IMG/VR virus record: IMGVR_UViG_3300012931_000291
Location: 1 to 61,044 of that record
DNA: 61,044 nucleotides
Reading direction: 5' to 3' (one strand)
Source: a virus
Taxonomy: Duplodnaviria; Caudoviricetes
The notes beneath the pieces were generated by a model. It saw nothing but the letters and a program-made list of their open reading frames with translations, searched no databases and had not been told where the DNA came from. This document shows positions 6,102 through 35,638 of this stretch, piece after piece; the first letter of the stretch is position 1, and every line of letters starts with the position of its first letter. The position numbers were made by a program, and so were the translations under genes.

Positions 6102-6111
6102 AAGAAAGGGA

Positions 6112-8644: not shown

Positions 8645-8940
8645 AGCTGTCAGAATTGCGTCCGTGCGACAAGTGTGGGGGACCGATCAATCCGATCTTC
8701 CACGTCGTCAGATATTCGCCCGCTGTCGTCAGTCAGCAGGCAGCGAGGGAGACGCTGGGCCTCAGCCAGATGTTCGGTGGTCACCTGGGTCTGGCGGAGG
8801 TGATGACCTCGAAGCCGGACGTAGTTTCGGTAGCCATGGACGACAAGGAGCACGCCGAGCTTGGTGTGGAGATCTTCCTCTGCAACGACTGCTACTGTGG
8901 CGATGTCAACCTTGCCGTCCTGGCAAAGAAGAAGGAGTAG
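8641..8940 (+). CDS. hypothetical Zn-ribbon protein
   Basis: CDKC ... CNDC pair; ATGA overlap with queC. Confidence 0.65.
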   Translation: MKLSELRPCDKCGGPINPIFHVVRYSPAVVSQQAARETLGLSQMFGGHLGLAEVMTSKPDVVSVAMDDKEHAELGVEIFLCNDCYCGDVNLAVLAKKKE

Positions 8941-8945
8941 ATTTC

Positions 8946-12638: not shown

Positions 12639-15316
12639 AACAAGGCTTCTTCGAGCAGCTCGGCCTGGAAGTGACCAAGACCTCCAGGCCGAGTTCTTCT
12701 CGTTCCGGCCCCCCTCGCAGGTCCTCCAACCTGACCAAGAAGGAGAATGAGACCTGCGAGGATTGCGGGTTGTACAAGACCTGCCAGTCGCCAAAGATGC
12801 CCCCAACGGGCAAAGGCGAGAAAGGCATCCTTATCGTCGCAGAAGCTCCGGGGAAGACAGAAGATGAGGAGGGGATCCAGCTGATCGGCAAGTCGGGCCA
12901 CTACCTGAGGACAGCACTAGAAGACCTCGGGGCTGACCTGGATCGTGACTTCTGGAAGACAAACGCAGTGATCTGCCGGCCGCCGGACAACCGCACGCCG
13001 ACGCCCAAGGAGCTTCGGATCTGCCGAGAAAACCTCCTGAACACGATCGAGGTCTACCAGCCGAAAGTCGTTGTCTTGATTGGCCAGCCGGCCTTCGACT
13101 CCTACCTGGGGCCTAGGCTGGTAGGCAGAATTAAAAATGTGCCGTATAGTAGTTGGGTGGGAATGACAATCCCCGACCAAGAAACCGGGCGATGGATCTG
13201 CCCGCTCTACCACCCCTCCTACCTCCTCCGCCTCCAGAATGAAGGCAGGAGAGATCGGGAGGAGCAGGAGGACAAAGTCCTCGCCGCGATGTACCGGCGA
13301 CAGCTCCAGCGTATTATCGACTTGGCCGATGAGCCCGTGCCCACCCTCGACTATGGCGATATCCAGACGACAGACGACGAGGCGACAGCAATCGAGTGGA
13401 TCAAGGCCGAGATGGCCGAGCAGCCCCGATGGCTCACCTTCGACTACGAGACCACTGGCCTGAAGCCCCACAGGGCGGGACACGGGATTCGAGTGGTCTC
13501 CTTCTGCGATGGGGTCAAGACCCGAGCGTTCAAGAACACCATGGAGACGGGGAAGTGGTGGGCCAAGCTCCTTCAGTCGTGCGACGAGAATCATACTGGG
13601 GTCATCGCGCACCACATGTCCTTCGAGGAGATGTGGTCGATGGAGATCCTGGGCACGAAGTTGGACATGAAGTGCCGCTGGGACACTATGCTCGGCGCGC
13701 ACATCATCGACAACAAGCGGTCGTGCGGATTGAAGTTCCTCGTCTACACGAAGTTCGGCGTCCTGGGATACGACCAGGACGTTGACTACTACATCGAGAC
13801 CAAGAAGCAGGGAGAGGACAACGACTCCTGCAACTCATTCAACCGGATTGACGAGGCTGACCAGAAGAAGCTCCTACGGTATGGTGCCGAAGATTCCTTT
13901 TTCACCTACAAGATCTTCCTCGATCAGTACGAGACGTTCAAGAAAGATCCCCACACCGGCCGTGGCGCAGCTTTCTTCTTCGAGTCCGTGGGCAGCTTGG
14001 CACGGATGCAGCAGAATGGCGTCTGCGTCGACATGGACGAACTCAAGTCGGTGAAGACCAAGATCACCAGGCGCCTCGAGTGCATCAAGGACCGAATCGA
14101 CTCCAGTCCCGAGGTCAAGAAGTGGGATGGCCTGACGGCGTTCAACTTCAAGTCAGGCCCCCAACTCTCCCACCTCCTGTACGACATCATGGGCATCGAG
14201 GTCAAGAAGAAGACTGGGTTGGACAAGGCCAGTACTGACGAGGAAGCTCTGGAGAAGATCGACGCGGATATTCCGATGGTTCATGATATTGTCGACTACC
14301 GCCATTGGTCGAAGGTCTTGACGACCTACCTGGGTCAGTACGAGCGGGAGGTGATGAATGGCCTGCTCCATGCCAACTTTGGTCTGGGCAACGTGGATAC
14401 CTTCCGCTCCTCCTCCTTCGACCCCAACCTCCAGAACGTGCCAAAGCGAGACGAGCAGGTCAAGAACTTGATCCGCTCGATCATCCGTCCGCGGCCGGGT
14501 CATCGGATCATCGAGTATGACTACAAGGCTCTGGAGGTCTCGATCGCGGGCTGCGTCTTCCGGGACCCCAACTGGCTCTCCTATTGCCGGGACACGTCGA
14601 AGGACATGCACCGCGATACAGCGATCGAGATTCTGTACCTGACTGACGAGTATGGGATGCCTTGGGAGGGGATCGAGAAGAAGATCGCCAAGCAGGTGCG
14701 GCAGGCGTCCAAGAACGGCTTCGTCTTCCCTTCAGTCTACGGCTCGTCTGGTAAGTCAGCTGCGGCAGGGATGTGGGAGCAGCTCCCAGACGACATCAAG
14801 CGTCATCTCAGGGTACACATTGGCATCAAGGACCTCGAAGGCTTTACTAAGAGGATGATTGCCTACGAGAAGGACTATTGGGGTGTGCGCTACCCCATCT
14901 ACGACAAGAACCGCCGTGATTTGTTCAAGTCCTACGAAAAGAAGGGGTATATTGAGCAAGTCACCGGGTTCCGCTGCTACGGGCCGATGTCGTTCATGCA
15001 AGTCGTGAACTACCCGGTTCAGGGCCCAGCCTCACACGTCAAGCTCAAGACCTTGTCCGAGGTGTCGCAGAGGATCGTCGACGAGAAGAAGGACATCTTG
15101 CCGATCATGGAGATCCATGACTCGATGCTCTTCGACGTGAATCCTGACGACGAGGCTTGGCTGGATGAGACAGTCCGCTACCATGGTATGGAGAAGGTGG
15201 CGCAGGATTGGAAGTGGATCATCGTCCCCCTGCTCCTCGAGAAGGAGCGGAGCGAAGTAGACGGGACCTGGGCCGTGATGAACGGATGTGGGTATCTTGG
15301 AGGAGGCAGAGAATGA
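12635..15316 (+). CDS. polA: family A DNA polymerase with N-terminal family-4 uracil-DNA glycosylase domain and 3'-5' exonuclease
   Basis: UDG: CEDC, AEAPG, TNAVICRPP.NRTP, YHPSYLLR. Exonuclease: FDYETTGL. Polymerase: PNLQNVP, YDYKALE, R...K......YG, IHDS. Confidence 0.92.
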   Translation: MKQGFFEQLGLEVTKTSRPSSSRSGPPRRSSNLTKKENETCEDCGLYKTCQSPKMPPTGKGEKGILIVAEAPGKTEDEEGIQLIGKSGHYLRTALEDLGADLDRDFWKTNAVICRPPDNRTPTPKELRICRENLLNTIEVYQPKVVVLIGQPAFDSYLGPRLVGRIKNVPYSSWVGMTIPDQETGRWICPLYHPSYLLRLQNEGRRDREEQEDKVLAAMYRRQLQRIIDLADEPVPTLDYGDIQTTDDEATAIEWIKAEMAEQPRWLTFDYETTGLKPHRAGHGIRVVSFCDGVKTRAFKNTMETGKWWAKLLQSCDENHTGVIAHHMSFEEMWSMEILGTKLDMKCRWDTMLGAHIIDNKRSCGLKFLVYTKFGVLGYDQDVDYYIETKKQGEDNDSCNSFNRIDEADQKKLLRYGAEDSFFTYKIFLDQYETFKKDPHTGRGAAFFFESVGSLARMQQNGVCVDMDELKSVKTKITRRLECIKDRIDSSPEVKKWDGLTAFNFKSGPQLSHLLYDIMGIEVKKKTGLDKASTDEEALEKIDADIPMVHDIVDYRHWSKVLTTYLGQYEREVMNGLLHANFGLGNVDTFRSSSFDPNLQNVPKRDEQVKNLIRSIIRPRPGHRIIEYDYKALEVSIAGCVFRDPNWLSYCRDTSKDMHRDTAIEILYLTDEYGMPWEGIEKKIAKQVRQASKNGFVFPSVYGSSGKSAAAGMWEQLPDDIKRHLRVHIGIKDLEGFTKRMIAYEKDYWGVRYPIYDKNRRDLFKSYEKKGYIEQVTGFRCYGPMSFMQVVNYPVQGPASHVKLKTLSEVSQRIVDEKKDILPIMEIHDSMLFDVNPDDEAWLDETVRYHGMEKVAQDWKWIIVPLLLEKERSEVDGTWAVMNGCGYLGGGRE

Positions 15317-16508: not shown

Positions 16509-17231
16509 ATGGACTTAATGAAGAGTTTCAAGGAAGTCGACAAGATCGGCGCGAAGGGCTTTAAGCTCTACGACGTTTTTCTCGCCGCCTTCGTCGCGCT
16601 TCTGCTCCTGTCGAACATCATCGCTGTCAAGCTGATTGCGGTGGGGCCTATAGTCCTAACCGCCGCAGTCTTCCTATTTCCCCTGTCCTACATTTTCGGC
16701 GATGTGCTCACGGAGGTCTACGGCTATGCGAGGTCTAGGCGGATGATCTGGCTCGGCTTTGCGGCCAACATCCTGATGGTCCTTGCCTTTTGGTTGGCTA
16801 TCTCTCTGCCGGCGCCTGTGTTCTGGAAGAACCAGGAAGCGCTCGTCACTGTGCTCGGCTCTGTTCCGAGGATTGTCCTCGCCTCCCTGATAGCATACTG
16901 GGTTGGTGAGTTCATGAACTCCTACGTCTTGGCAAGGATGAAGGAGTGGATGATCAAGTGGGATCCGAATCACAAACACCTCTGGATGAGGACGATCGGC
17001 TCGACCATCGTGGGCGAAGGCCTTGATTCTATACTATTTGTTATCATCGGTTTCTTTGGGACTATGCCGTTCGGGGCAGTACTGATGATGATCTTTTGGC
17101 AGTGGGTATTCAAGTGTGGAATCGAGATTGTGTTCACACCCCTCACTTACAAAGTCGTTGCCACGGTGAAGAAGGTGGAAGGCGTTGACACCATTGGCGC
17201 TGCGACATACAGTCCGTTGGTCTTCAAGTAA
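16509..17231 (+). CDS. yhhQ: queuosine-precursor (preQ0/preQ1) transporter
   Basis: Hydrophobic; SNIIAVK, FPLSYIFGDVLTEVYG, PRIVLASLIAY and RTIGST motifs. Confidence 0.9.
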   Translation: MDLMKSFKEVDKIGAKGFKLYDVFLAAFVALLLLSNIIAVKLIAVGPIVLTAAVFLFPLSYIFGDVLTEVYGYARSRRMIWLGFAANILMVLAFWLAISLPAPVFWKNQEALVTVLGSVPRIVLASLIAYWVGEFMNSYVLARMKEWMIKWDPNHKHLWMRTIGSTIVGEGLDSILFVIIGFFGTMPFGAVLMMIFWQWVFKCGIEIVFTPLTYKVVATVKKVEGVDTIGAATYSPLVFK

Positions 17232-21235: not shown

Positions 21236-21784
21236 GTGCTGGGTATGAGGCGCGTTGTACGACCCACGGAAGCGTTCACCTCAAGTTCCGCGGAACAAAA
21301 CCGAAAGGTACAAACCCCCGCGAAGCTCCTTCGTAAGCTTCTCCTTCCTCTTCTTTTGTTTGTAGCTTTCTTTGCCTGGGGGCAGACCATTGATGCCGAG
21401 ACTGAGCAGTGGGTTATCAACTACGGTTTGAGCAAGGGGATACCGGCTTCAGTGACGAGGCAGTTGATGATCGAGGAATCAGATAGAATCCCGACAGCTG
21501 TTAGTAAGCTTACGATAGAAGGTTACTCTTCGCGAGGTCTGTTCCAGTTGTACGACCGACCTTCAAATATTGAATGGTTGTTGGATACCTATTGGCATCG
21601 AAAGTATTCATTTGACATTTATGATCCGAGGGACAATGCAGAAGTGGCGTTGACGTATTTGGCAGCGCTACACAGACGATTTGGTACTTGGTACTTGGCG
21701 CTCTGCTACTACAATCATGGGGACGTCAAAACGATCCCAGACGAGACGGATGCCTATGCGCTCCGAATCATAAATGCGAGGTGA
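21236..21784 (+). CDS. lytic transglycosylase (SLT domain) with N-terminal hydrophobic segment
   Basis: EES, RGLFQL, DPRDN, YL and ALCYYNHG motifs; start uncertain. Confidence 0.8.
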   Translation: MLGMRRVVRPTEAFTSSSAEQNRKVQTPAKLLRKLLLPLLLFVAFFAWGQTIDAETEQWVINYGLSKGIPASVTRQLMIEESDRIPTAVSKLTIEGYSSRGLFQLYDRPSNIEWLLDTYWHRKYSFDIYDPRDNAEVALTYLAALHRRFGTWYLALCYYNHGDVKTIPDETDAYALRIINAR

Positions 21785-21787
21785 AGG

Positions 21788-22207
21788 ATGAAAGCGAAAG
21801 TCGTCTGTAACAAGTGTGCCTACTTGATGGTCGTGAAAGGCGTTGCTCCCTTCTGCCTGGCTGGGGCATACTTCGTTGATTCTGAGCTCTGCCGGAAGGT
21901 GGATGTTAAGGGGATAAAGGTTGCGGCGAAGGTTAACAAGTCGATGAACTGCAAGAAAAAGAAGCGGATTTCCTTGAAGGCTAACGCTTTCCATCGCTGG
22001 CTCAAGACCGACCTGAAGCGAAAGGGTCTCCAGTATGCCGGTCGTGATCTCTCAGCTTACAAGTGCGTTACATTGGAGAAGAAATATGTTGGACAGCTAT
22101 CAAGAGACAGTGGATCGCTTGAACTCGGGGAAAAAGCCCTCCTTGCCGGAGCAGGAAGCTCCACCGGAGCCGGAGGAGTCGTCTCAGCAGACGAAGTCGG
22201 AGGCTGA
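21788..22207 (+). CDS. hypothetical Cys-containing protein
   Basis: Basic 139-aa ORF with CNKC. Confidence 0.5.
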   Translation: MKAKVVCNKCAYLMVVKGVAPFCLAGAYFVDSELCRKVDVKGIKVAAKVNKSMNCKKKKRISLKANAFHRWLKTDLKRKGLQYAGRDLSAYKCVTLEKKYVGQLSRDSGSLELGEKALLAGAGSSTGAGGVVSADEVGG

Positions 22208-22424
22208 AGCGAAGCCTGATCGCCCTCCGCGCGTGATTGATGTCCGAGGTGAGCTCGAGATCACGATCATGAAATCGCTCTCCGCGGACAAGGGAGACAC
22301 CTATACTCAGTGTGAGTTCCTCGTGAACCTCACTATGGATGATCGGGTAAAGGAGGGAGTCATCGTTTTAGACGTTGCCAAGACCAGAAGGCTCTTGAAG
22401 TTGTTGAACCTCGAAGGTGTGTGA
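22086..22424 (+). CDS. hypothetical protein
   Basis: ATG 22086 preceded by GGAG; stop coupled to the next gene. Confidence 0.55.
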   Translation: MLDSYQETVDRLNSGKKPSLPEQEAPPEPEESSQQTKSEAEAKPDRPPRVIDVRGELEITIMKSLSADKGDTYTQCEFLVNLTMDDRVKEGVIVLDVAKTRRLLKLLNLEGV

Positions 22425-23074
22425 TGGCAGAGAGCAAAGACTTGACCCCGCTGGATCAGCCGCCGGATACGACACCAGTTTTCAGGGAGAAGATGGAGAA
22501 GATTTTCGCGTCCGTTTACTCCCAAGACGACCCTGAGCTCCCTCTTCTTCCTGAGAAGCATCGGATGTTTGCCTTCCGATGGGCTACGGAGTTCAGGACG
22601 AACGCTGACTGGGGGAGGATTTTCCATGTCAGTGATACACGGATTGCCGAGTGGAAGAAGAACCCGAAGATTCTTAAGTATTATTTAATTATTCGGCGGA
22701 AGCAGAATCTCGTTTTGATGGAGAGGATGAAGCTTCTCGAGACGAAAGCTTTCCAGAAGTTGTATGAGCTCTTAGATATGGATATCACGGATAAGAATGC
22801 TGATGTCATCAGGAAGACAATTATGAATGTCCTGGGTGTCGATGTTGAAGGAACCCTCAACTTGAGGGTGACTGCGGAGGCCAGGGCCGTAGCCTCCACA
22901 AGTGCATTGGGCGGTGAGGCTAAGGCAGCAGCCAAGGTTGAGACGAGTCTAGATATCAAGAAACTGCGCGACAGGCTAGACGAGATGGCCCTTTTGGAGG
23001 ACTTAGTAATAGTAGAACCGGAACCTGTAGAGTCAGATGTTAATGACAAGGTAGAAAATAATGATAATATATAA
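22421..23074 (+). CDS. putative terminase small subunit / HTH protein
   Basis: HTH-like segment (WGRIFHVSDTRIAEWKKNP) followed by helices; lies upstream of terL. Confidence 0.45.
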   Translation: MMAESKDLTPLDQPPDTTPVFREKMEKIFASVYSQDDPELPLLPEKHRMFAFRWATEFRTNADWGRIFHVSDTRIAEWKKNPKILKYYLIIRRKQNLVLMERMKLLETKAFQKLYELLDMDITDKNADVIRKTIMNVLGVDVEGTLNLRVTAEARAVASTSALGGEAKAAAKVETSLDIKKLRDRLDEMALLEDLVIVEPEPVESDVNDKVENNDNI

Positions 23075-23804
23075 AGTTATTTGTTATTGTACTGGTATGC
23101 TTTATATCGGGAAAACATGTATGTCGTTGAATGCGCGTAAGTATTATCATTTGTATGATGCAAAGCGAGGGAGTAGAGTTTATTTTCATAATGCTCTTCG
23201 AAAGTATGGCGTCGGGAACTTTGACTGGCAAGTGATTGATCAAGCTGAGTCCAAACAAGAACTTAACGAGAAGGAAAAGTACTGGATCCAGTTCTATAAG
23301 TCGTTTGATCCGCAGTTTGGTTATAATTTGACGATGGGTGGAGATGGAAATACAGCAGGAAATAAATTGTCAGGAGAAACGAAAAGAAAAATAGGAGCAG
23401 CTCTTGAAGGGCATATAACATCCATTGAGACAAGACAGAAAATTAGTGTTGCAAATAAGGGACGTATTTACCCCGAAGAATATGGAAAGAAAATGAGTAC
23501 TATTTTGAGAGGAAGAAAACAACCCAATGAAGTTGTACAGAAAAGAGCAAAATCTCTTAAGGGACATATAACATCTGATGAGACACGAAGAAAGATTGGG
23601 ATTGCAAATAAAGGAAAGATACGAACCGAAGAACAAAAAGAACAACAGCGTAGAAAAATGAAAGGGCGAAAGTTACCTGAGTATGCTGGGCAACATGTAG
23701 GTAGGACACAATCTAAAGAAATCAAAGACAAGATTTCTATTAAGATGAAACAAGTGTGGCAAGAAAGACGGTCAGGAGGAACAGAATGGACAGGAAAAGT
23801 TTGA
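23061..23804 (+). mobile_element. GIY-YIG homing endonuclease with NUMOD3 repeats
   Basis: IIYK...YIGKT, ALRKYG, E..WI, GYNLT.GG and repeated S.ETR.KI motifs; AT-rich. Confidence 0.9.
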
Positions 23805-24271
23805 AGAAGAACCAAGCGAGGAAGCGATTGCTCAAGGTCCAAGAGGCAATTAAAGACCTTCTCCAGCCGATCTACGCGTTGTCTTCCGAGGTTTTTGCCG
23901 AGGCTAAGAAGCGTTTTGACGAGTACCGTGTTAATGAAGGCATCGCCGATGGAGAAGTTATTTGCTCCCCGGTTACTGAGGAGATCATTATGAAGCTTTT
24001 TGACGACTGGAAACAACAAATCGTTATCAGGAGTCGCAAGCTTGGCTTGAAAGTGATTAAGAAGTACTCTCTTAGTATCGCCGTGGAAGCCTGGATCTTC
24101 TGCCGTCAAAATATCATTAAGAATCGTAGTCAGATTCAGGGTGTGCCGATTGTCTGGAAGGCTATTGATGAGTATTTTCAGCAGTTCGTCGACGAGGTGC
24201 AGATGCAGATCTTGGCTGAGATGGACAAGGAGAATCAATGCTTTGAAGATTCTAAGAGTGTCCTTGAGTAG
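23786..24271 (+). CDS. hypothetical protein
   Basis: AGGAGG upstream of ATG (MDRKSL...). Confidence 0.6.
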   Translation: MDRKSLKKNQARKRLLKVQEAIKDLLQPIYALSSEVFAEAKKRFDEYRVNEGIADGEVICSPVTEEIIMKLFDDWKQQIVIRSRKLGLKVIKKYSLSIAVEAWIFCRQNIIKNRSQIQGVPIVWKAIDEYFQQFVDEVQMQILAEMDKENQCFEDSKSVLE

Positions 24272-24301
24272 TCCACCGGAGTTTCTTCGTAGGAGGAGAA
24301 G

Positions 24302-24586
24302 ATGAAATGCACAGTTTGCGGTAAAGAGTCAGAAAAAGGTGCAAAAGTCACAATAACTATTTTCAGGGAAAAGATATTTTTTTATTGCAGCCCTGCTTGT
24401 GTTAAAAAGAGCAGGCATGGAATAGGAATAAAACAAGCGCTTCTTAAGATGTTTGAAGATCATGCCATATCCAACACAGATTTCAACTCGACAACTACCA
24501 GTGTAGGACAATGCAAAATGTCCACAGTGACAAAACTTGATGAATTTGCTACGCCGTGTAGCAGTTGCAAGTCAATGTTAGGCTGA
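24302..24586 (+). CDS. small Zn-finger protein (CxxC...FYCSxxC)
   Basis: Strong RBS; reads through an attC-like site. Confidence 0.55.
   Translation: MKCTVCGKESEKGAKVTITIFREKIFFYCSPACVKKSRHGIGIKQALLKMFEDHAISNTDFNSTTTSVGQCKMSTVTKLDEFATPCSSCKSMLG
24469..24583 (+). repeat. attC-like site 1 (degenerate)
   Basis: ATCCAAC-ACAGA-TTTCAACT-CGACAACT ... AGTTGCAAGT-CAAT-GTTAGGC. Confidence 0.55.
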
Positions 24587-24619
24587 CAATCACGGCGGAT
24601 AATTTGCAAGGAGAGAAAT

Positions 24620-24784
24620 ATGGCACACGGAAAGAGCAAGTCACAGTCGAATCCGAATGGAGTACGGTCTATCTCCAATGGCGCTGAACGCGCACCAAAA
24701 GCCCTTCGCCGACTTGGTAAAAAGCTTATGTTGGATTGTACTGACAAAGAACTTGAGAGAGTTTCGCAGGTAAAGAGAGTCTAA
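24620..24784 (+). CDS. 54-aa cassette-like ORF (not in the ORF track)
   Basis: AAGGAG RBS; MAHGKSKSQSNPNG...VKRV; its TAA lies inside the GTCTAAC box of attC-like site 2. Confidence 0.65.
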   Translation: MAHGKSKSQSNPNGVRSISNGAERAPKALRRLGKKLMLDCTDKELERVSQVKRV

Positions 24785-24839
24785 CAACTGAATCAATCTG
24801 ACAATGCTTGCGCGTTGTCAGGTTATCTAAATGTTATAT
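24779..24839 (+). repeat. attC-like site 2
   Basis: GTCTAAC-AACTG-AATCAATC-TGACAA-loop-TTGTCA-GGTTATC-TAAAT-GTTATAT, giving the R''/L''/L'/R' layout with an unpaired C in L''. Confidence 0.72.
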
Positions 24840-24859
24840 GGGCCTGGGTAGAGGTTGTT

Positions 24860-25237
24860 ATGGAAGATGGGATTGAAATTGAAAAAGAATGTATTGAAGC
24901 ATTTGAAAAATATATGCGAAGTGTTGGTATGAACCCACTCTCCGACACTATCCGTATGGGGCAGTTTTGGAATATCTGGAAAGCCTCATGGTTTACATGT
25001 ATTAATGCGCCGGGGCGTAGAACAACTACTTCGCTTGTTACTAAGACTTCGGATTGTGGAGGATGTATGCACGTAAAGAAATTAATTAGAATTGTCCATA
25101 TCGCAGATGCAGTAGAAATAATCTGTAATGAAACAGGGATGACAATTCCAGATTGTATAGATAGGCTTGTAGGGGTAGACGGGTTGACTACTGCTGATGC
25201 AAAAGAAGTTAAATTATATCACATGAAAAGGATATGA
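24860..25237 (+). CDS. hypothetical cassette-like protein
   Basis: GAGG RBS; lies between attC-like sites 2 and 3. Confidence 0.55.
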   Translation: MEDGIEIEKECIEAFEKYMRSVGMNPLSDTIRMGQFWNIWKASWFTCINAPGRRTTTSLVTKTSDCGGCMHVKKLIRIVHIADAVEIICNETGMTIPDCIDRLVGVDGLTTADAKEVKLYHMKRI

Positions 25238-25287
25238 ATTTGACAACGAGTTTGACCTGACAACCACAAAGGCCGGTTGTCAGGTAT
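25238..25287 (+). repeat. attC-like site 3 (right end lost)
   Basis: ATTTGAC-AACGA-GTTTGACC, with a perfect ACCTGACAACC/GGTTGTCAGGT stem directly after the ORF stop. Confidence 0.5.
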
Positions 25288-25409
25288 ACAGATAATCTGC
25301 GAGAGGAGAAAGATTGTATGAAAACCAATGGCCTCACATGGAGACAGTTGTGCATTTGATTGGGGGTCAGGCTGAGAATGTATCGACGAGAAATGCAAAG
25401 GAGTAAATT

Positions 25410-25634
25410 GTGATTAGTAATTCGGTGAGAATAAATCCCTATGATTACACCTGGTATCATCCGTTTGATCTTATCGGCCCTTGCCGTTTTATTGGATTTG
25501 ATGAATTTGGGAGAGGCCGATTTAAGGTAGGGATTGGATCTGTTTTTCCCGATAGCCAATGTAACTCGGGAGAACTTAGAAGTAACTCCATGATTATTGG
25601 GGAGTGCCTCGCAGGAGTAGAAGATGCCGGATGA
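25410..25634 (+). CDS. hypothetical protein
   Basis: AAGGAG upstream; overlaps the terL start. Confidence 0.45.
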   Translation: MISNSVRINPYDYTWYHPFDLIGPCRFIGFDEFGRGRFKVGIGSVFPDSQCNSGELRSNSMIIGECLAGVEDAG

Positions 25635-27414
25635 AGTACAACATTTAGCTGAGCAAATTACTTTGAAAGATGTGGATTTGAAAGAGCTTTTGAAAGATAA
25701 AGCTCCAATATTGTACTGGGCAACAAATTATCATAGAAACATTCGCGGTGATCGGATGTCTTTCAAAGATCGATGGTATTTAGCTTCTTTGTATCGCGAT
25801 TTCCTCAAGTTTCATAAGTTAGCAGTGATGAAACCTGTCCAGCATGGCTTATCTGAGTTGTTTATCGTCGGCTCGTTCTACGAAGCAGCAGAACTCGGAT
25901 ATATCGTCATGTACGTCTTGCCGAAGTACAAAGGCCGAGATCGATTTGTCAACTCGCGCGTGGATACAGTTATTCGCAGGGTTCCAGCTTATGGAAGGAT
26001 GATGAGTGATGCAGCCGGAACCAGTCGAGTTGCTCTGAAGCAGTTTGGTAAGGGGCAACTCTTGTATGTCGGCTCTAACGTGGAAGATGAGTTTGTTGAG
26101 GTTCCAGTGGACTCAGCCTTCGTTGACGAGAAAGATAGATGCAATCAGCGAAATCTTCTGCTTTTGCCAGACCGCTATTCCGCCAGCCCACATAAGTTCC
26201 ATCGGGAGATTTCGACGCCAACTATCGAGGGGAGGGGTATTGATGGGCGGATCCAGACGAGCACGAAAGGCTACTGGATGATCAAGTGTGAAGGTTGCAA
26301 TTATCGCTTCTTTCCCGGCTTCTTCGAGGCAGTGATGAAGCAGGTAGAGGAGAGGAAGTGGATCCCCCGAGACGAGAAGTGCGGGGAGTTTGACGAGCCC
26401 CGAGTGATTTGCCCGAAGTGCAACCGACCAGTCAATCGCTTTTCTAAGGGGGAGTATGTTGAGGAGTATCCAGGGCGGGAGTGGGTAGGACGGATCGTCG
26501 CCCCGACGGTCAGCCCGACGGTGACGATGCGAGAACTTGTTACTGTGTGGGATGAGTCCTTCCTGAACCCTTTGAAGAAGGAGTTCTTTTACAATTCCCG
26601 CCTAGGTCTTCCTTACACGTCGGAAGGTGCGAAGTTCTCCTCCGGTCTACTCACTGGCATCCAGATCCCTTACCAATATCCAGTTGATCGAACCACCGTT
26701 CACGGGCCGTTGTTCATGGGCGTGGACGTCGGCGATGTGCTGACCGTGGTGATACGCGAGAGGATCAGAGATGAGCATGGGATTTTGAACCGTCGTCTGG
26801 TCTTGGCTACGGAGCTTCCCAGCTTCACCTTGCTCAAGGACATGATTAGGGAGTGGAATCCTCGAGTATGCGTTATCGACGCTGACCCCGAGATTCACAA
26901 CATCGCTTCTTTGAAGGGGGAGTTCAAGAATATTTTCTCCTCCCGTTTCCAGCACGCCCTGCTTGAGTTTCGCATCAATCGAGAAGACAGAGTCCTGAAT
27001 GAGGACCGGACGGCAGCTATCGACAGCTTGAAAGCAGCGATCGAGGCGCATGCTTTGATGAACCCAGAAGGATCGGAGGTCTTAGTTGGGGGTCGATACT
27101 GGTCGCAGATGCAGGCTTCAACGCGTGTCCTGGTTGTGAACGAGAACAACCCTGAGAAGTCCTACTATTCGTGGGAGGAGAACTCGCCGGACCACTTTAT
27201 GCTCGCTGAGACGTATTGCAACCAGGCAAGCAGACTCCTCCCCAGTGAATCAGTCTTGGATTATTACGCGCAGGTGGCAGCGCAAGGTGCAGCTCCCACG
27301 CAGCAGGCGATTGTGACACCGATAGGTGGGGGGCAAGCAATGTCTCAGGCTGAGTTGAACACTCTGGCCCAGCAGTCACCTGAGCAATTTTTGGACTCTT
27401 TGAGAAAGTTGTAG
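25624..27414 (+). CDS. terL: terminase large subunit (GpA-like)
   Basis: MKPVQHGLSE, FVDEKD, ISTPT, two CxxC motifs, LGLPY, MGVDVG and PDHF. Confidence 0.88.
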   Translation: MPDEVQHLAEQITLKDVDLKELLKDKAPILYWATNYHRNIRGDRMSFKDRWYLASLYRDFLKFHKLAVMKPVQHGLSELFIVGSFYEAAELGYIVMYVLPKYKGRDRFVNSRVDTVIRRVPAYGRMMSDAAGTSRVALKQFGKGQLLYVGSNVEDEFVEVPVDSAFVDEKDRCNQRNLLLLPDRYSASPHKFHREISTPTIEGRGIDGRIQTSTKGYWMIKCEGCNYRFFPGFFEAVMKQVEERKWIPRDEKCGEFDEPRVICPKCNRPVNRFSKGEYVEEYPGREWVGRIVAPTVSPTVTMRELVTVWDESFLNPLKKEFFYNSRLGLPYTSEGAKFSSGLLTGIQIPYQYPVDRTTVHGPLFMGVDVGDVLTVVIRERIRDEHGILNRRLVLATELPSFTLLKDMIREWNPRVCVIDADPEIHNIASLKGEFKNIFSSRFQHALLEFRINREDRVLNEDRTAAIDSLKAAIEAHALMNPEGSEVLVGGRYWSQMQASTRVLVVNENNPEKSYYSWEENSPDHFMLAETYCNQASRLLPSESVLDYYAQVAAQGAAPTQQAIVTPIGGGQAMSQAELNTLAQQSPEQFLDSLRKL

Positions 27415-27498
27415 TTTTATTATGGAAGTTATCGAAGGGTGCTATGCTTCACATTTAAGAAAGTGATATCAACTGAGTCTTAGAGGGAGGAGGGTGCT

Positions 27499-27864
27499 AT
27501 GCTTAGGAACTTTGGAGTGATTTTTGTTTTGGTCTTTGTTGCCGTAGTTGTTGTCTGGATGGTTCGAGATGCGATGAAGAAATTGAATGTTGATTGTGAT
27601 CGACTTGTCCCTTTCGATTATGACGAAGGTCCAAAGCGTTTGTATAGGATATGTGTCTACGTTATAGAAGTTAATAAACAGGCGGCGAATTTCTCATTCA
27701 TCATTCCAGGACGGTATAAGGATAGAAAAATCATCTTGCCTTTGCGCGATTTACCGGAGAAGCTACGAGAAGCTATTTGTTCAGGGAAGTATTTGTATGT
27801 TAGGGCGAATATTAAGGCTTCTGATATTGAGGACCTTTGGTTTGAGGGTTGGGGGGAGGTGTAA
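27499..27864 (+). CDS. hypothetical protein with N-terminal membrane anchor
   Basis: Hydrophobic N-terminus; RBS present. Confidence 0.6.
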   Translation: MLRNFGVIFVLVFVAVVVVWMVRDAMKKLNVDCDRLVPFDYDEGPKRLYRICVYVIEVNKQAANFSFIIPGRYKDRKIILPLRDLPEKLREAICSGKYLYVRANIKASDIEDLWFEGWGEV

Positions 27865-27865
27865 G

Positions 27866-28126
27866 ATGTACAACCGAATCTATATGAGTAATGCAAAAGT
27901 GGGATCAATTATTGATTCGATCTTCGATGAACTCGCGGCCGCAGAGAAAAAGCATCCTGAATGGCCAGAGGATAAAATACACGCCGTCGCAATAATGGTC
28001 GAAGAAGCAGGAGAATCGATGCAAGCCGTACTTGATTATACTTATGCAAACGGCGATATTGAGCATCTAAAGAAAGAGTTGGCACAAACTGGAGCAATGT
28101 GTCTCCGAGTGCTTATGCACTTATAA
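27866..28126 (+). CDS. MazG-like all-alpha NTP pyrophosphohydrolase
   Basis: EEAGE ... KKELAQ pattern. Confidence 0.6.
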   Translation: MYNRIYMSNAKVGSIIDSIFDELAAAEKKHPEWPEDKIHAVAIMVEEAGESMQAVLDYTYANGDIEHLKKELAQTGAMCLRVLMHL

Positions 28127-28267
28127 AACTTTATATGTGTCGAAGAGACGATCCAAGCGTTAGTGGCTTGGAATTATTTGTAAGGATTGAGTAGGAGGAG
28201 AAAATGACTTTTGATATGACACGGTGCAGGATTGGAGGCTGTCTAGTTAGAAGGGAGGAAGGGTCAA

Positions 28268-28486
28268 ATGCGAAGTATTTGTGAGATGGGCGGTGCTACG
28301 AGAGATCTGTGGTCACTCTTTCCTTTGCTACATGATTATAGTACGGCCCACTATTTTCGTACCTGCGCTCGATGTAGCTGCGGTCAAGAACTTTTTACGA
28401 ACGGGCAAGGACTGTGGAAATGCTTTTCTTGTGGTAAGAAATATTCGCAGAAAAGAACTTCGAGCGACCACCAAAAAAGAACTTAA
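28268..28486 (+). CDS. small Zn-ribbon protein
   Basis: CSCG ... WKCFSCG. Confidence 0.35.
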   Translation: MRSICEMGGATRDLWSLFPLLHDYSTAHYFRTCARCSCGQELFTNGQGLWKCFSCGKKYSQKRTSSDHQKRT

Positions 28487-28500
28487 ATCCAAACTAATTG

Positions 28501-31551: not shown

Positions 31552-33504
31552 GTGAAGTTCGTCAAGCCGTCCCAGTACGCTGATCTCGTCAAAGCCAAAG
31601 GCCTCCCGATGGGGGCTGTTCGTATGTACAAAAACGGCGAGTGGTTCCGCAAAGTAGGAGGAGCGAAGGGATGGGAGTATGTCGGTAAGCAGGGCGGGGC
31701 CAAGGCCAAGCAGGTCGTGGATGAGGCCAAGACGAAAGGTTTACCGGTAGTCATGCCCTCAGCGCAGGGTGGAGGACAGAAGGCTAATGTAGTTGCTGGT
31801 GGGGCTGTCAAGAAGCCGAGGATAAACCTTGGGGCTAAGGTTCACCTAGAGAAGTGGGCCAAGGAAGATCCAGGAGCGTTCAAAGCCGCCGTCGCCCACG
31901 CTATCAACGTCAAGAACCCTCACCCGATGTTCGGCTCGGCAGACATTAAGGGCAAGATGTCTCGCTGGGACCTGGCAATGATGGTTAAAGTGGCCGCCGA
32001 GCACGGTTTGGTAGCACCTGAGCCGAAAGTCAAGCCAGTGCTCGTGAATGAGGCCAAGCAGAAGCGCGAGGTTAAAGATGAGGCCAAGGCGGAAGCCAAG
32101 GCTAGGGCAGAGGCTAGTGCTGCGAAGGCTGAGAGAGAAGCCATCCCTGAAGGATGGGACAAGATGGACTACGGCGAACAGATCGTCGCCAATCGGAAGC
32201 TGTTCGTCGAGCAGATGATGGAAGCCCGGAGAGCTAAGTGGGGTGGGAAGCCCTTCGATCCGAAGAACGCCGAGGACCACAAGAATGTTAAGCTATGGAT
32301 GAACGCCGGCTCCACAGCTCTGGTGAACATAATGGAAGCCGTCCGGAAGGATCCTGTCAAGGAGAAGCACGAGGCCAGTGTAGGGAGGGCCAAGAGGGGG
32401 AATGTCCCTAAGAGCTGGGACAAGATGGACTACGGCGAGCAGGTCGTTGCCAACCGGAAGCTGTTCGTCGAGAATATGTTGGAGGAGGCTCGAAAGGTCA
32501 AGGGGGATGAGCGGCCTTTCGACCCGAAGAATGCTGACGACCGCAAGAATGTTAAAGAGTGGATGAAAGCTGGCCCCAGGGCCCTGGTGGGGATGATGGA
32601 AGCCATCCGGAAGGATCCTGTCAAGGCCAAGCGCCAGGCCGAGGCCAAGGCAGAAGCCGAGGAGAAGAGCATCGCGGCCAAGAAGCTCCTCAAGGAGATC
32701 ATCGATAGGGACACTCCGAAGTCCCCGCAGGAGATCGCGCTTGCCCAGTCAGACGTGGTCGGGAAGAAGAACGTAAGCAATGGGCATGTCAACGTCGTCC
32801 GGGTCCTGGACATCAAGTCCCCGGAAGGCAAGGAGGCCAAGGCCATTTTCAAGCCCATCGAAGGCGAATGTGAGATGGACCTCAGAGAGGGGAATATCCC
32901 ACTTGGCGAGCAGTGGAAGAGGGAGCGCCTAACCTATATAGTCGACCAGATTGTAAATATTGGCGTTGTGCCCACGGTTGTTGTCAAAGAAGTCGATGGC
33001 AAGCCAGGTGCCATGATGGACTTCGTCGACGGCAAGGTCTGGGCTGAGGCTAGTGAGGCGATGCAGAATAAGGTACCCACGCTTGAGTACCAGAAGCTAG
33101 TCCTTCTGGACTGGCTCATCTGCAACACTGATCGCCATGGCATGAACTGGATGATTGACAACGCCGGAAAGGTGTATGCGATCGACAACGGCTTAGCCTT
33201 CCCCGAAAAAGTCAATTTTGGGGAGTGGAACGGATATAGGTGCATACCTCACCAGATCCTCCAAAGACGCCACGGCCTCGAACTGCCGGACGAGCTCAAG
33301 GGCTTGCTAACCCCGGAGAAGAAGAAGCGGATCATCGGAGCGATACAGATGTTCAACCTCGGAGGGAAGGCTGTTGAGTTGTTCGAGAAGAGATGGGATT
33401 ACCTAGTAAAACATGGAGCCTTCCCTGAGTATAACGAGGTGGAGGGATTTATGGTCCTGAATCGTGAGACGCCTAACTGGGCGTCATTGGAGAGAGTAAG
33501 ATGA
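31552..33504 (+). CDS. multidomain protein with C-terminal PI3/PI4-kinase/HipA-like kinase
   Basis: AIFKP, RERLTY, VPTVV, DWLICNTDRHGMNW and AIDNGLAFP motifs. Confidence 0.82.
   Translation: MKFVKPSQYADLVKAKGLPMGAVRMYKNGEWFRKVGGAKGWEYVGKQGGAKAKQVVDEAKTKGLPVVMPSAQGGGQKANVVAGGAVKKPRINLGAKVHLEKWAKEDPGAFKAAVAHAINVKNPHPMFGSADIKGKMSRWDLAMMVKVAAEHGLVAPEPKVKPVLVNEAKQKREVKDEAKAEAKARAEASAAKAEREAIPEGWDKMDYGEQIVANRKLFVEQMMEARRAKWGGKPFDPKNAEDHKNVKLWMNAGSTALVNIMEAVRKDPVKEKHEASVGRAKRGNVPKSWDKMDYGEQVVANRKLFVENMLEEARKVKGDERPFDPKNADDRKNVKEWMKAGPRALVGMMEAIRKDPVKAKRQAEAKAEAEEKSIAAKKLLKEIIDRDTPKSPQEIALAQSDVVGKKNVSNGHVNVVRVLDIKSPEGKEAKAIFKPIEGECEMDLREGNIPLGEQWKRERLTYIVDQIVNIGVVPTVVVKEVDGKPGAMMDFVDGKVWAEASEAMQNKVPTLEYQKLVLLDWLICNTDRHGMNWMIDNAGKVYAIDNGLAFPEKVNFGEWNGYRCIPHQILQRRHGLELPDELKGLLTPEKKKRIIGAIQMFNLGGKAVELFEKRWDYLVKHGAFPEYNEVEGFMVLNRETPNWASLERVR
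32155..32626 (+). repeat. internal ~70-aa domain duplication
   Basis: WDKMDYGEQ.VANRKLFVE...PFDPKNA.D.KNVK.WM.AG...MEA.RKDPVK begins at 32155 and at 32416. Confidence 0.9.
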
Positions 33505-33754: not shown

Positions 33755-35638
33755 ATGGTCTTGCTGAAGGCTCGGGCCATGCCCACGGGGGCTATTCGCC
33801 ACTACGCGAACGGTGAGACCTTCAGGAAGGTTGGCGGGACCAAGGGCTGGGAGTACGTGGGTAAGATGGGATCAGCCAAGGCGAAGGCAGCGGAGGAAGA
33901 AGCTAGGAAGAACGGGCTTCCAATCATCCACGCCGAGCCCAAGGCCGGTGGCGGACAGCAACAACCCCAGAAGCCCTCGACATCCAAGGCATCGACGAAC
34001 ATCGCAGTCGATCCTGCCAAGGTGAAAGCTCACCCGATCCCTCCTGACCTGAGGAAGGAGTGGCAGGCTAACGGGGGCGTGAATAATCCCGAGTACCGCA
34101 AGTGGGTTGAGGAGAACTGGGCCCAGGGTGCGGAGGAGAAGGGGATCGCGTTCCCCAGGATGAGTACCTATGAGAAGATGTCTGTCGAGCAGATGTACAA
34201 TTATGCTAGTGACAAGTTCAAAGTATCAATCGAGGACAAGATTACCAAGGAGAACAAAGCTGCTTGGCACTCAATCTTCTACCAGCTCGACACCCTCCAC
34301 GACCTAGGTTTCATCAACAAGAGGCTGCTCACAATCGGTTTCGAGAAAGACGCACTTGACAAGGACGGGAACCTTCGCTTGAACGGGGGCCTCTGCAAGG
34401 CATACTACCAAGAGAATGAGCACCGCATCGAGTTGAGTCCGAAGTACAAGGACAGCTTCGTGCACGAGTACTTCCATCATCTCGATGCCACTGGCGGAGC
34501 AGAGGACTACAAGGAGCGTATGGAAGCCCAGCTCGCGCTCATCAACGCGCTGAAAGCCACGAAGAGCTACCAGAAGTTCGTCGCGCTGGACATCAAGCGA
34601 GGCAAGACTTACTACAGCGACGTCGGGGAGATGATTGCTCGCTTGGGCGCGGAGTATGTCTATTATCACGTCAAGAACTCGGGTGAGAAGCCTGCAATTC
34701 GCATGGTACAAGCTCCGTACAGGACGGACTTCTCACCCTCAGAATTTGTCAAGCTGAAGCCACTCCTTGAGAAGGCATTCGCCAAGCAGAAGACCACTGA
34801 GCCCGGACCTGAGGAGAAGAAGCAGGGGATCTTGATTAAAGCCACTCTTGACGTAACAGCTCGCCTGGTACTAGCAAAACCCACTGTCTACTACTCGCTA
34901 GGCGAGGAGGATTTATACAAGGGAGCAGTGGTCAAGGTTCAGGACATGCCAGGCGCGAAGAGCGGGAAGACACAGAAGCTCATCCTGCTCAGCCCGACAG
35001 GAACGATCGTCGAGGCAGCGTGGAAGACTAAGCAGGACCGCGATGTTAGGAAGGGCAACATCCCAGCCGGTACGGAGTGGAAGCGGGAACGACTTGCGTA
35101 CCTAGTGTCGGAGATCCTGGGCTTGCAGAACGTGCCCCCAGTCGTAGTCAGGCGAGTTGATGGGAAGATCGGCTCCGCGATGAGCATGGTCTATGCCGAC
35201 ACGTGGAAAGCGTCAGGCCTGGAGTACAAAGATGTCTACGTCCGCGAGTGGCAGAAGCTCGCCGTTTTAGACTGGTTGATCTGTGCTACCGATCGCCACC
35301 GCCGCAACTGGCTGGTGGATGACAGCGGCAAGTTCTGGGCCATCGACAACGATCTAAGCTTCCCGGAGAAGGCGGAGTATGGTCTGTTCGAGGGCTATCG
35401 CTCCCGGCCTCATTGGTATCTGAACGAGCACCAGACACTCGCCCTCATGGACGATATCGTCCGCTTGTTCAGCCAGGAGAAGAAGAGGGAGATCCTTGTC
35501 CAGATGGTCAAATATGGAATAGCCTCGAAAGGCAGAGTGATCTTCGCTAGAAGGTGGGAGTACCTGGTGGCGGAGAAAGCTCTCCCACCCTACGTGGAGT
35601 TGGATAAGGGTTTCATGGAGAAGCCGAAGGGAGAGTGA
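33755..35638 (+). CDS. polyvalent protein: HExxH zincin (LPD1-like) domain + PI3/PI4-kinase/HipA-like kinase
   Basis: FVHEYFHHLD...YYS...EMIAR; RERLAY, DWLICATDRHRRNW and AIDNDLSFP. Confidence 0.82.
   Translation: MVLLKARAMPTGAIRHYANGETFRKVGGTKGWEYVGKMGSAKAKAAEEEARKNGLPIIHAEPKAGGGQQQPQKPSTSKASTNIAVDPAKVKAHPIPPDLRKEWQANGGVNNPEYRKWVEENWAQGAEEKGIAFPRMSTYEKMSVEQMYNYASDKFKVSIEDKITKENKAAWHSIFYQLDTLHDLGFINKRLLTIGFEKDALDKDGNLRLNGGLCKAYYQENEHRIELSPKYKDSFVHEYFHHLDATGGAEDYKERMEAQLALINALKATKSYQKFVALDIKRGKTYYSDVGEMIARLGAEYVYYHVKNSGEKPAIRMVQAPYRTDFSPSEFVKLKPLLEKAFAKQKTTEPGPEEKKQGILIKATLDVTARLVLAKPTVYYSLGEEDLYKGAVVKVQDMPGAKSGKTQKLILLSPTGTIVEAAWKTKQDRDVRKGNIPAGTEWKRERLAYLVSEILGLQNVPPVVVRRVDGKIGSAMSMVYADTWKASGLEYKDVYVREWQKLAVLDWLICATDRHRRNWLVDDSGKFWAIDNDLSFPEKAEYGLFEGYRSRPHWYLNEHQTLALMDDIVRLFSQEKKREILVQMVKYGIASKGRVIFARRWEYLVAEKALPPYVELDKGFMEKPKGE

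Follow-up and report, generated by a model that had tools for sequence, protein, structure and literature searches.

Directly before the large terminase gene (terL) of a virulent-type myovirus lies an accessory block of about 1.3 kb (24305-25626) that carries four small open reading frames (ORFs) of 94, 54, 125 and 74 aa. Positions refer to the window, the whole stretch of 61,044 nt that was analysed. The block is best described as a mosaic of accessory genes that probably holds one orphan integron-type cassette and not an active array, a description given about an even chance of being correct. In this model, the four-ORF mosaic would have been inserted at the ribosome-binding site (RBS) and start codon of terL. 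Behind each of the first three ORFs lies one member of a hairpin family, in which an RTYYRAC-like box is separated by 5 nt from a 3-pair helix; a single bulged base and then a CCTGACAA stem come next. The 54-aa ORF and the hairpin behind it, called site 2, would most likely be a genuine integron-type cassette, either by descent or still able to recombine, with a GTTAGGC core at its start and an attC-type site of 61 nt at its end. Only the left half of such a site is retained in the two remaining hairpins (sites 1 and 3) and in a hairpin of an unrelated phage (locus L007). Since no integrase was found in the phage or in the binned genome (MAG), the cassette would at present be an orphan attC or a relic, not part of a working array.

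Site 2 occupies 24779-24839 on the + strand and reads GTCTAAC-AACTG-AAT-C-AATCTG ... CAGGTT-ATC-TAAAT-GTTATAT. An earlier note on this DNA had seen here the full layout RYYYAAC-5-L''...L'-5-GTTRRRY-like with an unpaired C, and this is what the site contains. The terminal boxes are GTCTAAC (R'', RYYYAAC) and GTTATAT (R', one mismatch to GTTRRRY), and five of the seven R''/R' positions pair when G-T is counted. Between them, L'' (AAT-C-AATCTG) and L' (CAGGTT-ATC) form a helix with the bulged C at its canonical place, and the unpaired spacers, AACTG and TAAAT, are both 5 nt long. The stem has 13 pairs and the loop is TTGC. The second extrahelical base that is present in the class 1 training sites is missing. 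The stop codon of the 54-aa ORF (TAA, 24782-24784) lies inside GTCTAAC, again as the earlier note had it.

Two covariance models, distinct from those of IntegronFinder, were constructed for this analysis; genuine attC sites of integrons on plasmids and chromosomes served as their input. The first (R1) contains 7 sites and the second (R2) 18 rows with 15 distinct sites, and the window was scanned on both strands with filters off. Both models rank site 2 first in the 61-kb window, at 21.4 bits (E 0.0044) with R1 and, rising with the broader model, 29.7 bits (E 6.2e-5) with R2; the E-values of these models are rough, and a per-window value overstates the case, since this window was singled out of very many. 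On sequence alone, site 2 scores 16.7 bits against a profile of the attC left half, with p 9.4e-7 per position (5.33 million MAG positions).

Real attC sites outside the R2 training set score 17.6-27.6 bits. In the controls, R2 gives at most 10.4 bits in 98 kb of other phage loci and at most 17.8 bits in 93.5 kb of loci chosen for CTGACAA hairpins. Strand assignments by R2 are weak, since one of its rows is in reverse orientation and it gives real attC sites up to 29.2 bits on their reverse strands. The layout of boxes and pairs alone is not rare: a simple rule-based attC scan finds 12 scattered matches in the 2.73-Mb MAG.

The putative cassette is a single unit of 256 nt (24578-24833, + strand), recognised by its GTTAGGC core and by the stop codon inside R''. 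It runs from TTAGGC through an RBS, the 54-aa ORF (24620-24784) and the attC to the G of GTTATAT; the core lies at 24577-24583, 36 nt ahead of the ATG. As in integron cassettes, a single small promoter-less ORF begins shortly after the core and has its stop codon in R''. IntI would have cut site 2 in the past. An 83-aa homologue with 39-41% identity occurs elsewhere in a related phage locus (L020), where it is followed by an ordinary terminator-like hairpin and not by an attC. An 80% homologue is found on a 750-bp contig, and an IMG/VR scan for close relatives gave none for this ORF. The relatives of the 94-aa and 54-aa ORFs lie on phage contigs or on one short contig, and no integron arrays were seen there.

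As DNA, the core of site 2 (24795-24824) folds on the + strand at -9.2 kcal/mol (z -2.4), and 5 of 200 shuffled sequences do as well. The bottom strand, to whose folding the earlier note had pointed, does fold (-7.0 kcal/mol), but the top strand is better by 2.2 kcal/mol because two top-strand G-T pairs turn into A-C mismatches on the bottom. Site 2 differs here from most real attC sites: in 12 of the 14 compared, the bottom strand equals or exceeds the top in stability. As RNA, the core reaches -17.9 kcal/mol (z -5.0), and site 2 is more stable in the sense strand (-20.3 kcal/mol) than in the antisense strand (-14.8 kcal/mol).

Better folding of the sense strand is one of several features that suit a second model, in which the block is an ordinary moron-type insertion. 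In this model, small genes from low-GC phages each carry a 3' sense-strand RNA stem-loop, which would act as a stabiliser of the mRNA 3' end, as a processing site or as a weak terminator. The hairpins would be alike by descent, and the fit of site 2 to attC would be due to chance or convergence, noticed because the reader sought it. This model is quite possible, if less probable than the orphan cassette.

Hendrix and colleagues reportedly described morons in work on HK97/HK022: they are accessory genes that sit between two genes which are neighbours in related phages. The position of the block corresponds to this. Its left neighbour is a conserved 171-aa gene (23756-24271, + strand; 34-44% identity in relatives by tblastn) and its right neighbour is terL (25624-27414, + strand), which encodes a gpA-type ATPase (Pfam GpA_ATPase, E 3.6e-17; PHROG terminase large subunit, E 2.8e-63; the ESM Atlas lead says only 'viral terminase'). 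In four distinct relatives, L001/L014, L002/L017, L013 and L015, the whole block is missing, and the homologue of the 171-aa gene stands directly before TerL, abutting or overlapping terL (tblastn). The composition deviates as well: most of the window has a G+C content of about 0.53 but the block ORFs one of 0.36-0.47, which bears out the earlier note's description of small AT-rich ORFs. Extra genes between genes adjacent in related phages, foreign composition and small size with unknown function are all shared with morons.

The borders of the block, like its absence from relatives, count in favour of the moron model and of the mosaic block with an orphan cassette alike. An 18-nt direct repeat of RBS and ATG brackets the insertion, with the left copy at 24287-24304 and the right copy, which is the RBS and ATG of terL, at 25609-25626 (both + strand, 16/18 identical). 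The repeat suggests that short-homology recombination of the ordinary sort brought the block in. In the relative L001, one such RBS-ATG junction stands before terL. The earlier note had envisaged presence and absence of ORF-plus-site units among relatives with junctions at G/TT. Absence from four relatives was found, but the borders are the repeat and not G/TT; no relative with part of the block was found, and the comparison concerns the whole block.

Further evidence for the moron model comes from the 94-aa ORF (24302-24586, + strand). Its first 57 residues, with a CxxC ... CSPAC motif, are conserved, and its tail is a frame-shifted extension through site 1 that ends at the TGA inside CTGACAA. 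A homologue of 65 aa, 79% identical over residues 1-56, occurs in the IMG/VR loci L007 and L008, and a representative library holds four proteins at E <= 0.001, the query itself among them. In L007, as read from the sequence, the 65-aa gene lies behind a consensus TTGACA-17-TATAAT promoter and ahead of a related hairpin, the classic moron layout of a gene with its own promoter and a downstream hairpin. The DNA homology between the window and L007 (24291-24497, 76.6%) begins at the RBS and ends at the left arm of the L007 hairpin, which is the only hairpin of the block's type in that 31.7-kb contig. The block in the window differs from morons in this respect, as a + strand scan of 21500-28500 found no promoter-like or terminator-like site inside it (9 and 5 sites in total, against 9.0 and 6.0 expected).

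The 125-aa ORF (24860-25237, + strand, ATG at 24860) is an orphan that finds only itself among 5.8 billion proteins. It has no match in Pfam, PHROG, NCBIfam or PADLOC, and the ESM Atlas gives no usable lead (best feature score 0.77, TM below 0.5). The 74-aa ORF (25410-25634, + strand), taken from the ORF list, has a GTG start and overlaps the start of terL; no relatives were found, with no match in five viral records and none to a family in Pfam, PHROG, NCBIfam or PADLOC. Six ORFs in all were run against NCBIfam and PADLOC, with no match.

Between site 3 and the 74-aa ORF lies a non-coding stretch (25291-25412, + strand) that internal sequence comparison resolves into repeated junction modules. 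Its first part, 25291-25314, is a copy of the leader of the 54-aa ORF (79% identical to 24598-24621). Its last part, 25343-25412, is a copy of the 'CAGTTG ... GTYAGGCTGASAAT ... GCAAAGGAG' junction, here with GTCAGGC; 25366-25379 is 86% identical to 24577-24590, and the longer alignment was made by inspection of the letters. Two other starts are preceded by copies of the leader and RBS that follow the GTTAGGC core. Such repetition is what phage gene arrays typically show, unlike integron cassettes, and it counts in favour of the moron model. A similar arrangement is the PeSL of T4-type phages, said by Arbiol et al. 2010 to be a mobile regulatory cassette of early promoter and stem-loop. Here too, short intergenic modules of stem-loop and leader/RBS are repeated and flank small ORFs in a variable region, and recombination between the repeats could drive shuffling. 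Unlike PeSL, the repeat of the block has no promoter and far fewer copies, and no circles or shuffled variants were seen.

With the hairpins themselves, the evidence on the moron model is divided. In its favour, they are strong as RNA: for the core of site 2 (see above) and for site 3 (-20.1 kcal/mol), none of 200 shuffled sequences folds as well. Like intrinsic terminators and intercistronic mRNA stem-loops, they are stable sense-strand hairpins directly after stop codons. Unlike intrinsic terminators, none is followed by a T run, the terminator scan is silent there, and they share a conserved stem-base sequence, an upstream box and a bulged base. The sense-strand bias is confined to site 2 and absent in sites 1, 3 and the L007 hairpin, and G-U bias was for this reason dropped as an argument for an RNA role. 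The moron model also leaves three things unexplained: the conserved RTYYRAC box, with a spacer of 5 nt and a bulged base, on the 5' side of all hairpins; the GTTAGGC core; and an attC match of 29.7 bits where about 190 kb of controls reach at most 17.8 bits. Should site 2 prove not to work as an attC, the block would be no more than an ordinary insertion of accessory genes.

Three related palindromes behind small ORFs had been described in the earlier note. Sites 2 and 3 do have strong folds with a common stem, but site 1 does not belong with them as a fold. Site 1 (24469-24583) carries both boxes, ATCCAAC and GTTAGGC, without a supporting fold: its folding energy does not stand out from that of shuffled sequence (+ strand z -1.0, - strand z -0.07). 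Its inner imperfect hairpin (24499-24529) is weak, with an RNA z of -1.9 and 9 of 200 shuffles as good. The half-profiles give 7.4 bits (p 1.2e-4) for the left half and 5.1 bits for the right half, which ends at GTTAGGC. With R2, only the minus strand, the wrong one, matches (12.4 bits, E 1.4). As an attC, site 1 is not convincing. Its weak match, with its E of 1.4 for the window, falls within 200 nt of site 2, a proximity that counts in favour of the orphan cassette.

Site 3 (25238-25285, + strand) consists of an attC-like left half, ATTTGAC-AACGA-GTT-T-GACCTG, that runs into a perfect 11-pair hairpin (25255-25285). Perfect stems of at least 11 pairs occur at only three loci in the window, this one included. 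As DNA, the core has z -4.3 on the + strand and -5.4 on the - strand, and 0 of 200 shuffles are as good. There is no R' box of the GTT type, and the scores are low (R2, 9.1 bits, E 9; left-half profile, 3.7 bits, p 6.4e-4). Longer readings of site 3 as attC, with R' at 25348 (GTTGTGC) or 25366 (GTCAGGC), were dropped, as neither model reports them at E <= 10. A "collapsed left half" claimed at 25017 (GTAGAAC) lies inside the 125-aa ORF, is not RYYYAAC and has no model match. The home-made covariance models thus accept site 2 of the three proposed sites but neither site 1 nor site 3, and on this basis IntI would not be expected to use sites 1 and 3 or the L007 hairpin as substrates.

The hairpins are a family by sequence. 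Sites 2 and 3 have in common the stem CTGACAA(Y)/(R)TTGTCAG. The window contains 14 copies of CTGACAA, an ordinary count (9.4 +/- 3.1 expected), and 6 of the 14 fall within 24583-25283. Site 2, site 3 and the L007 hairpin share a consensus of 3 pairs, a bulge and 12 pairs, with compensatory change in 3 of the 15 pairs. Across the family, variation is found in the upper stem and the loop, with the stem base and an ACAAC box 9 nt ahead of it conserved; the left-half profile gives p 1e-4 to 6e-4 for the other three members at the aligned positions.

Copies beyond these are scarce. The MAG has no hairpin of the family other than the two in this contig, save two short chance palindromes. The pattern CCTGACAAC-N5-12-GTTGTCAGG has four matches in IMG/VR, all unrelated. 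The extended motif ACAAC-N9-CTGACAA...TTGTCAGG has 2 matches in IMG/VR and 22 (about 17 independent) in 185,579 species genomes, counts that are near the chance expectation of about 16, itself a rough estimate. Four of the extended-motif matches proved to be an intergenic repeat of about 105 nt in one Spirochaetaceae MAG, which is not attC-like (10-11.5 bits) and belongs to no Rfam family. Rfam, searched with 22000-28000 at E <= 10, gives only chance matches to eukaryotic families.

A more speculative model makes the hairpins a phage-borne family of attC-type folded sites, defined by the left simple site, the bulged base and the CCTGACAA stem. Small phage genes would travel between unrelated phages as RBS-ORF-hairpin units, and these units would be the raw material for integron cassettes or the substrates of an unrecognised recombinase. 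This model is improbable. If it were true, cassettes could originate from phage morons. The family bears on the open question of how attC sites and cassettes arose, and the more unusual point of the block is that related hairpins have an attC-like left half, one of them behind a homologous gene in an unrelated phage.

The earlier note favoured an active array of three attC sites, in which the phage gains and shuffles cassettes by means of an integron integrase supplied by the host or encoded elsewhere. Site 2 passes the attC models, attC-like left halves are found in all family members, and five of the seven R2 matches in the window at E <= 10 lie inside this 1-kb stretch. Such clusters are also known: Qi et al. 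2023 (PMC9892861) described them in phages, virulent ones included. In that study, integron parts were found in 21 of 10,705 phage genomes, and IntI1 recombined 5 of the 6 phage-borne attC sites tested. A cluster of attC sites lacking integron-integrase (CALIN) is defined there by at least two sites of at least 20 bits within 3 kb. The block is like the integron attC sites and CALINs of phages in the anatomy of site 2, with R''/L''/L'/R', 5-nt spacers, a canonical bulge and a length of 61 nt, and in its virulent-type carrier without an integrase, as is true of several cases in that paper. It differs in having one passing site, where the published clusters have at least two, and in the mismatch in R'; the next best site has 12.4 bits and is on the opposite strand. 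Unlike integron attC sites, site 2 is more stable in its top strand and its neighbouring hairpins are without R'.

That no integrase was found counts against the active array and the orphan cassette alike, and it fits the moron model. An integrase or tyrosine recombinase was not found among the 60 window ORFs scanned, as the earlier note had stated. Its proposal of an IntI in the host or elsewhere fared worse. A complete integron would contain intI (TIGR02249) and an adjoining attI; the MAG, which is 83% complete, has 0 IntI matches. None of 41 genomes, own plus relatives, exceeds the family cut-off, and IntI at E <= 1e-40 is missing from all 85 genomes of the host's family. In the phylum, 2 of 400 genomes are over the cut-off. 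Tyrosine recombinases (PF00589) are found neither in the MAG nor in five viral records. The attC left-half pattern has three foreign single matches in the 400 phylum genomes, about the chance level, and no source array. In the assembled contigs of two wetland sequencing runs, a possible source of this DNA, contigs being blind to rare variants, the stretch is present in one form without joints; two further runs contain only short pieces of it, and no RNA run is listed as holding it. With sites 1 and 3 failing, borders away from G/TT, entry at an RBS repeat and no IntI known in the host lineage, the active array is very unlikely. From the cassette reading of the earlier note, the anatomy of site 2, an ORF bounded by GTTAGGC and attC and the absence of the block from related phages are supported; the array, the gain at G/TT and the IntI are not.

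If site 2 is a working attC, a virulent-type phage of a wetland community carries a ready-made cassette where no integron is found in the host lineage. It would be one more case for the recently described phage route of cassettes between bacteria. The earlier note also likened the boxes to Treponema integron repeats; a search for FlaA, a spirochaete flagellar marker, gave no match in the MAG and none in control genomes either, and so carries no weight.

Least likely of all is that the hairpins are recognised, through the CCTGACAA stem base and the ACAAC box upstream of it, by another sequence-specific protein, be it an unknown recombinase or nuclease or a phage-encoded RNA-binding regulator: the conserved stem base and box, the compensated and varying upper stem, the variable half-site spacing, which argues for recognition of a folded strand and not of duplex DNA, and a homing endonuclease gene 0.5 kb upstream speak for it, but there is no candidate protein, the small ORFs belong to no family, the phage has two strong copies and one weak copy and the L007 contig one, and the extended-motif counts are near chance.

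This homing endonuclease gene (23061-23804, + strand) has the Pfam domains GIY-YIG and NUMOD3 and matches the PHROG homing endonuclease family with E 4e-35. None of 12 related loci contains a match to it, and it is a separate low-GC insertion (GC 0.37) just upstream of the block, between a conserved 217-aa gene and the 171-aa gene.

Rfam holds no model of the integron attachment site attC, and a model was therefore built. An integron integrase encoded by G404, a genome belonging to the same phylum, scores 429 bits against TIGR02249 and served as the query for plasmid integrons. Seven integron regions were retrieved, five of them class 1 integrons and the other two from Kovacikia and Candidatus Tenderia. 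The first model, R1, is an alignment of seven attC sites behind annotated cassette genes, with the textbook structure of 7 pairs, 5 unpaired bases, 3 pairs, a bulge and 6 pairs. It recovered further unseen real sites at 15.6-61.7 bits and missed some others. The second, R2, was made from the 18 R1 matches in integron loci, of which 15 were distinct sites, 2 were duplicates and 1 was a reverse-strand row. Under R2, real attC sites held out of training scored 17.6-27.6 bits, 98 kb of other phage loci reached at most 10.4 bits, and 93.5 kb of loci picked for their CTGACAA hairpins did not exceed 17.8 bits.

With both strands of the whole window searched and filters off, the top R1 match is exactly the hairpin at 24779-24839, site 2, on the plus strand (21.4 bits, E 0.0044). 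Five of the eight R1 matches at E <= 10 fall inside the stretch that the earlier note described as an integron-cassette-like array with three attC-like sites. Under R2, site 2 scores 29.7 bits (E 6.2e-5; the E-values of such home-built models are rough). The covariance models thus uphold site 2 but not site 1 (24469-24583; 12.4 bits, E 1.4, minus strand only) or site 3 (25238-25285; 9.1 bits). Site 2 also stands out in a profile of the attC left half that uses sequence alone (16.7 bits; per-position p 9.4e-7 against the background of the MAG into which the phage contig was binned). Since the 54-aa ORF begins 36 nt after a perfect GTTAGGC core, 24578-24833 can be read as one putative cassette of 256 nt. 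The stop codon TAA of this ORF falls within GTCTAAC, as had been claimed. In sequence and shape, the match of site 2 to attC is too good to be dismissed.

Sites 2 and 3 are real hairpins. Folded as DNA, the core of site 2 (24795-24824) was equalled by 5 of 200 shuffles and that of site 3 (25255-25285) by 0 of 200; the RNA folds, at -17.9 and -20.1 kcal/mol, were equalled by none of 200 shuffles in either case. Site 1, the remaining imperfect palindrome of the earlier note, is no more stable when folded than its shuffled versions (z -1.0 and -0.07). The stem CTGACAA/TTGTCAG is common to the hairpins, and 6 of the 14 copies of the heptamer in the window lie within 700 bases.

A further hairpin of this family occurs in an unrelated low-GC phage. 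Residues 1-57 of the 94-aa ORF match, with 79% identity, a 65-aa protein in its IMG/VR contigs L007 (G+C 0.40) and L008, and DNA homology between the window and L007 (76.6%) runs from the ribosome-binding site (RBS) to the left arm of the hairpin behind the 65-aa gene. The stem base of the L007 hairpin, CCTGACAATT ... AATTG-CAGG, is the same. The aligned spot in the window has decayed, with a frame shift by which the 94-aa ORF reads about 30 codons further. When the L007 hairpin is aligned with sites 2 and 3, the consensus consists of 12 unpaired bases (RTYYRAC box, ACAAC) followed by 3 pairs, a single-base bulge and a stem of 12 pairs, with compensating changes in 3 of the 15 pairs. At the aligned positions the left-half profile gives 7.9 bits for the L007 hairpin, 7.4 for site 1 and 3.7 for site 3 (p 1e-4 to 6e-4), on a par with or above the left halves of five held-out real sites. 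This family-wide attC-like left half and bulge suggests common descent from attC-type sites.

There is perhaps an even chance that the site 2 unit is one orphan integron-type cassette or cassette relic, the neighbouring hairpins being its decayed relatives. The main rival, which is quite possible, takes all the hairpins as sense-strand stem-loops carried with morons, site 2 being an attC look-alike. Several results tell against an integron origin. The bottom-strand fold proposed as a check came out the other way: the top strand of site 2 is more stable by 2.2 kcal/mol, whereas 12 of 14 real attC sites have a bottom strand that equals or exceeds the top in stability. Real sites presented as the reverse strand also score as high as 29.2 bits under R2. 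A rule-based scan of the MAG found 12 scattered sites, so the box-and-pair layout alone is not rare. The leader behind GTTAGGC, RBS included, recurs before two other starts, once with GTCAGGC, and the window was picked by the earlier reader out of very many. Only site 2 reaches 20 bits, whereas Qi et al. 2023 (PMC9892861) set a cluster criterion of at least two sites of 20 bits or more. The same paper describes recombination by IntI1 of attachment sites and cassette clusters of temperate and virulent phages; the site 2 cassette, if real, would be a further case of these already published phage-borne attC sites and cassettes.

An active three-site array driven by a host integrase is unlikely, despite the score of site 2, given that IntI gave no match in the MAG, passed the cut-off in 0/41 own-plus-relative genomes and in only 2/400 genomes of the phylum, and was found in 0/85 genomes of the host's family at E <= 1e-40. 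No array with a left half of the site 2 type was found in 400 phylum genomes, and assembled contigs of two runs, which are blind to rare variants, hold a single form of the stretch. The MAG (83% complete) and five related viral records gave no PF00589 recombinase, and the MAG's lineage may lack Xer-type recombinases or have highly divergent ones. The PF00589 search was positive in 14 of 14 control genomes, with the MAG giving no match; the integron-integrase model at E <= 0.001 had any match in only 3 of 24 same-family genomes.

L042, a locus of a same-phylum genome with an integron integrase, holds a 44-nt palindrome, GCCCAAC ... GTTAGGC, at 4353-4396 and a partial copy near intI at 6879-6904. 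Neither model picked up this palindrome, which resembles an attC or attI-proximal site of very small size. An intergenic repeat of about 105 nt occurs at least four times in one Spirochaetaceae MAG, on four contigs (about position 2000 in L057, L061 and L073; about 518 of L068, minus strand). The repeat has two hairpins built from CCTGACAA/TTGTCAGG and matches neither attC model nor any Rfam family.

The block of small ORFs (24305-25626) is, as a whole, an ordinary mosaic insertion of accessory genes. The G+C content of 23-26 kb is 0.39-0.42, compared with about 0.53 in most of the window. Six IMG/VR and 13 metagenome loci of TerL relatives were fetched, and 12 were compared by tblastn with the region's nine proteins. 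In four distinct relatives (L001/L014, L002/L017, L013 and L015; TerL identity 61-79%), terL directly follows the 171-aa gene, which directly follows the 217-aa gene; the block as a whole is missing from them. Its borders in the window are not at G/TT: an 18-nt direct repeat (16/18 identical) flanks the block, each copy being an RBS plus ATG, the left for the 94-aa ORF and the right for terL. L001 has one junction of this type. The block therefore probably came in at the terL translation start via short-homology recombination, not at an att site. A 2023 preprint (10.1101/2022.09.11.507474) reports cassettes inserted outside att sites.

The homing endonuclease and the 94-, 125- and 74-aa ORFs are absent from all 12 loci by tblastn. 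A relative of the 54-aa ORF (39-41% identity) occurs in one, L020, 3.3 kb upstream of terL and before queD, followed by an ordinary terminator-like hairpin. The free-standing GIY-YIG/NUMOD3 homing endonuclease gene (23061-23804; GC 0.37) overlaps two conserved genes, of 217 and 171 aa, at their ends. It lies 0.5 kb upstream of the block and is a low-GC insertion in its own right, the second in this region.

The window is a virulent-type myovirus contig, judging from its gene content and from the scan of 60 ORFs, which confirmed that it lacks a detectable integrase. All sizeable genes lie on the plus strand. They include a primase, SNF2 and DnaB-type helicases, a RecA-like protein, a family A DNA polymerase with an N-terminally fused uracil-DNA-glycosylase-superfamily domain (12602-15316), a gpA-type large terminase, a portal protein and baseplate proteins. 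The phage contig (G000:C110, 63.8 kb) sits in a MAG of 2.73 Mb. A 7-deazaguanine gene set (PTPS/QueD, radical-SAM QueE, GTP cyclohydrolase I (folE), QueC and a QueF-like protein) with a Vut_1/YhhQ-type transporter, at 5980-10047 and 16509-17231, suggests that the phage DNA is modified. The two other perfect hairpins of the window with 11-12 pairs, at 47955-47981 and 12659-12693, are unrelated in sequence to the CTGACAA family. Directly after the portal region, two adjoining proteins of about 630-650 aa (31552-33504 and 33755-35638) both show, at the C-terminus, a short stretch matching the PI3/PI4-kinase family (E about 1e-9), an unusual feature for a head module.
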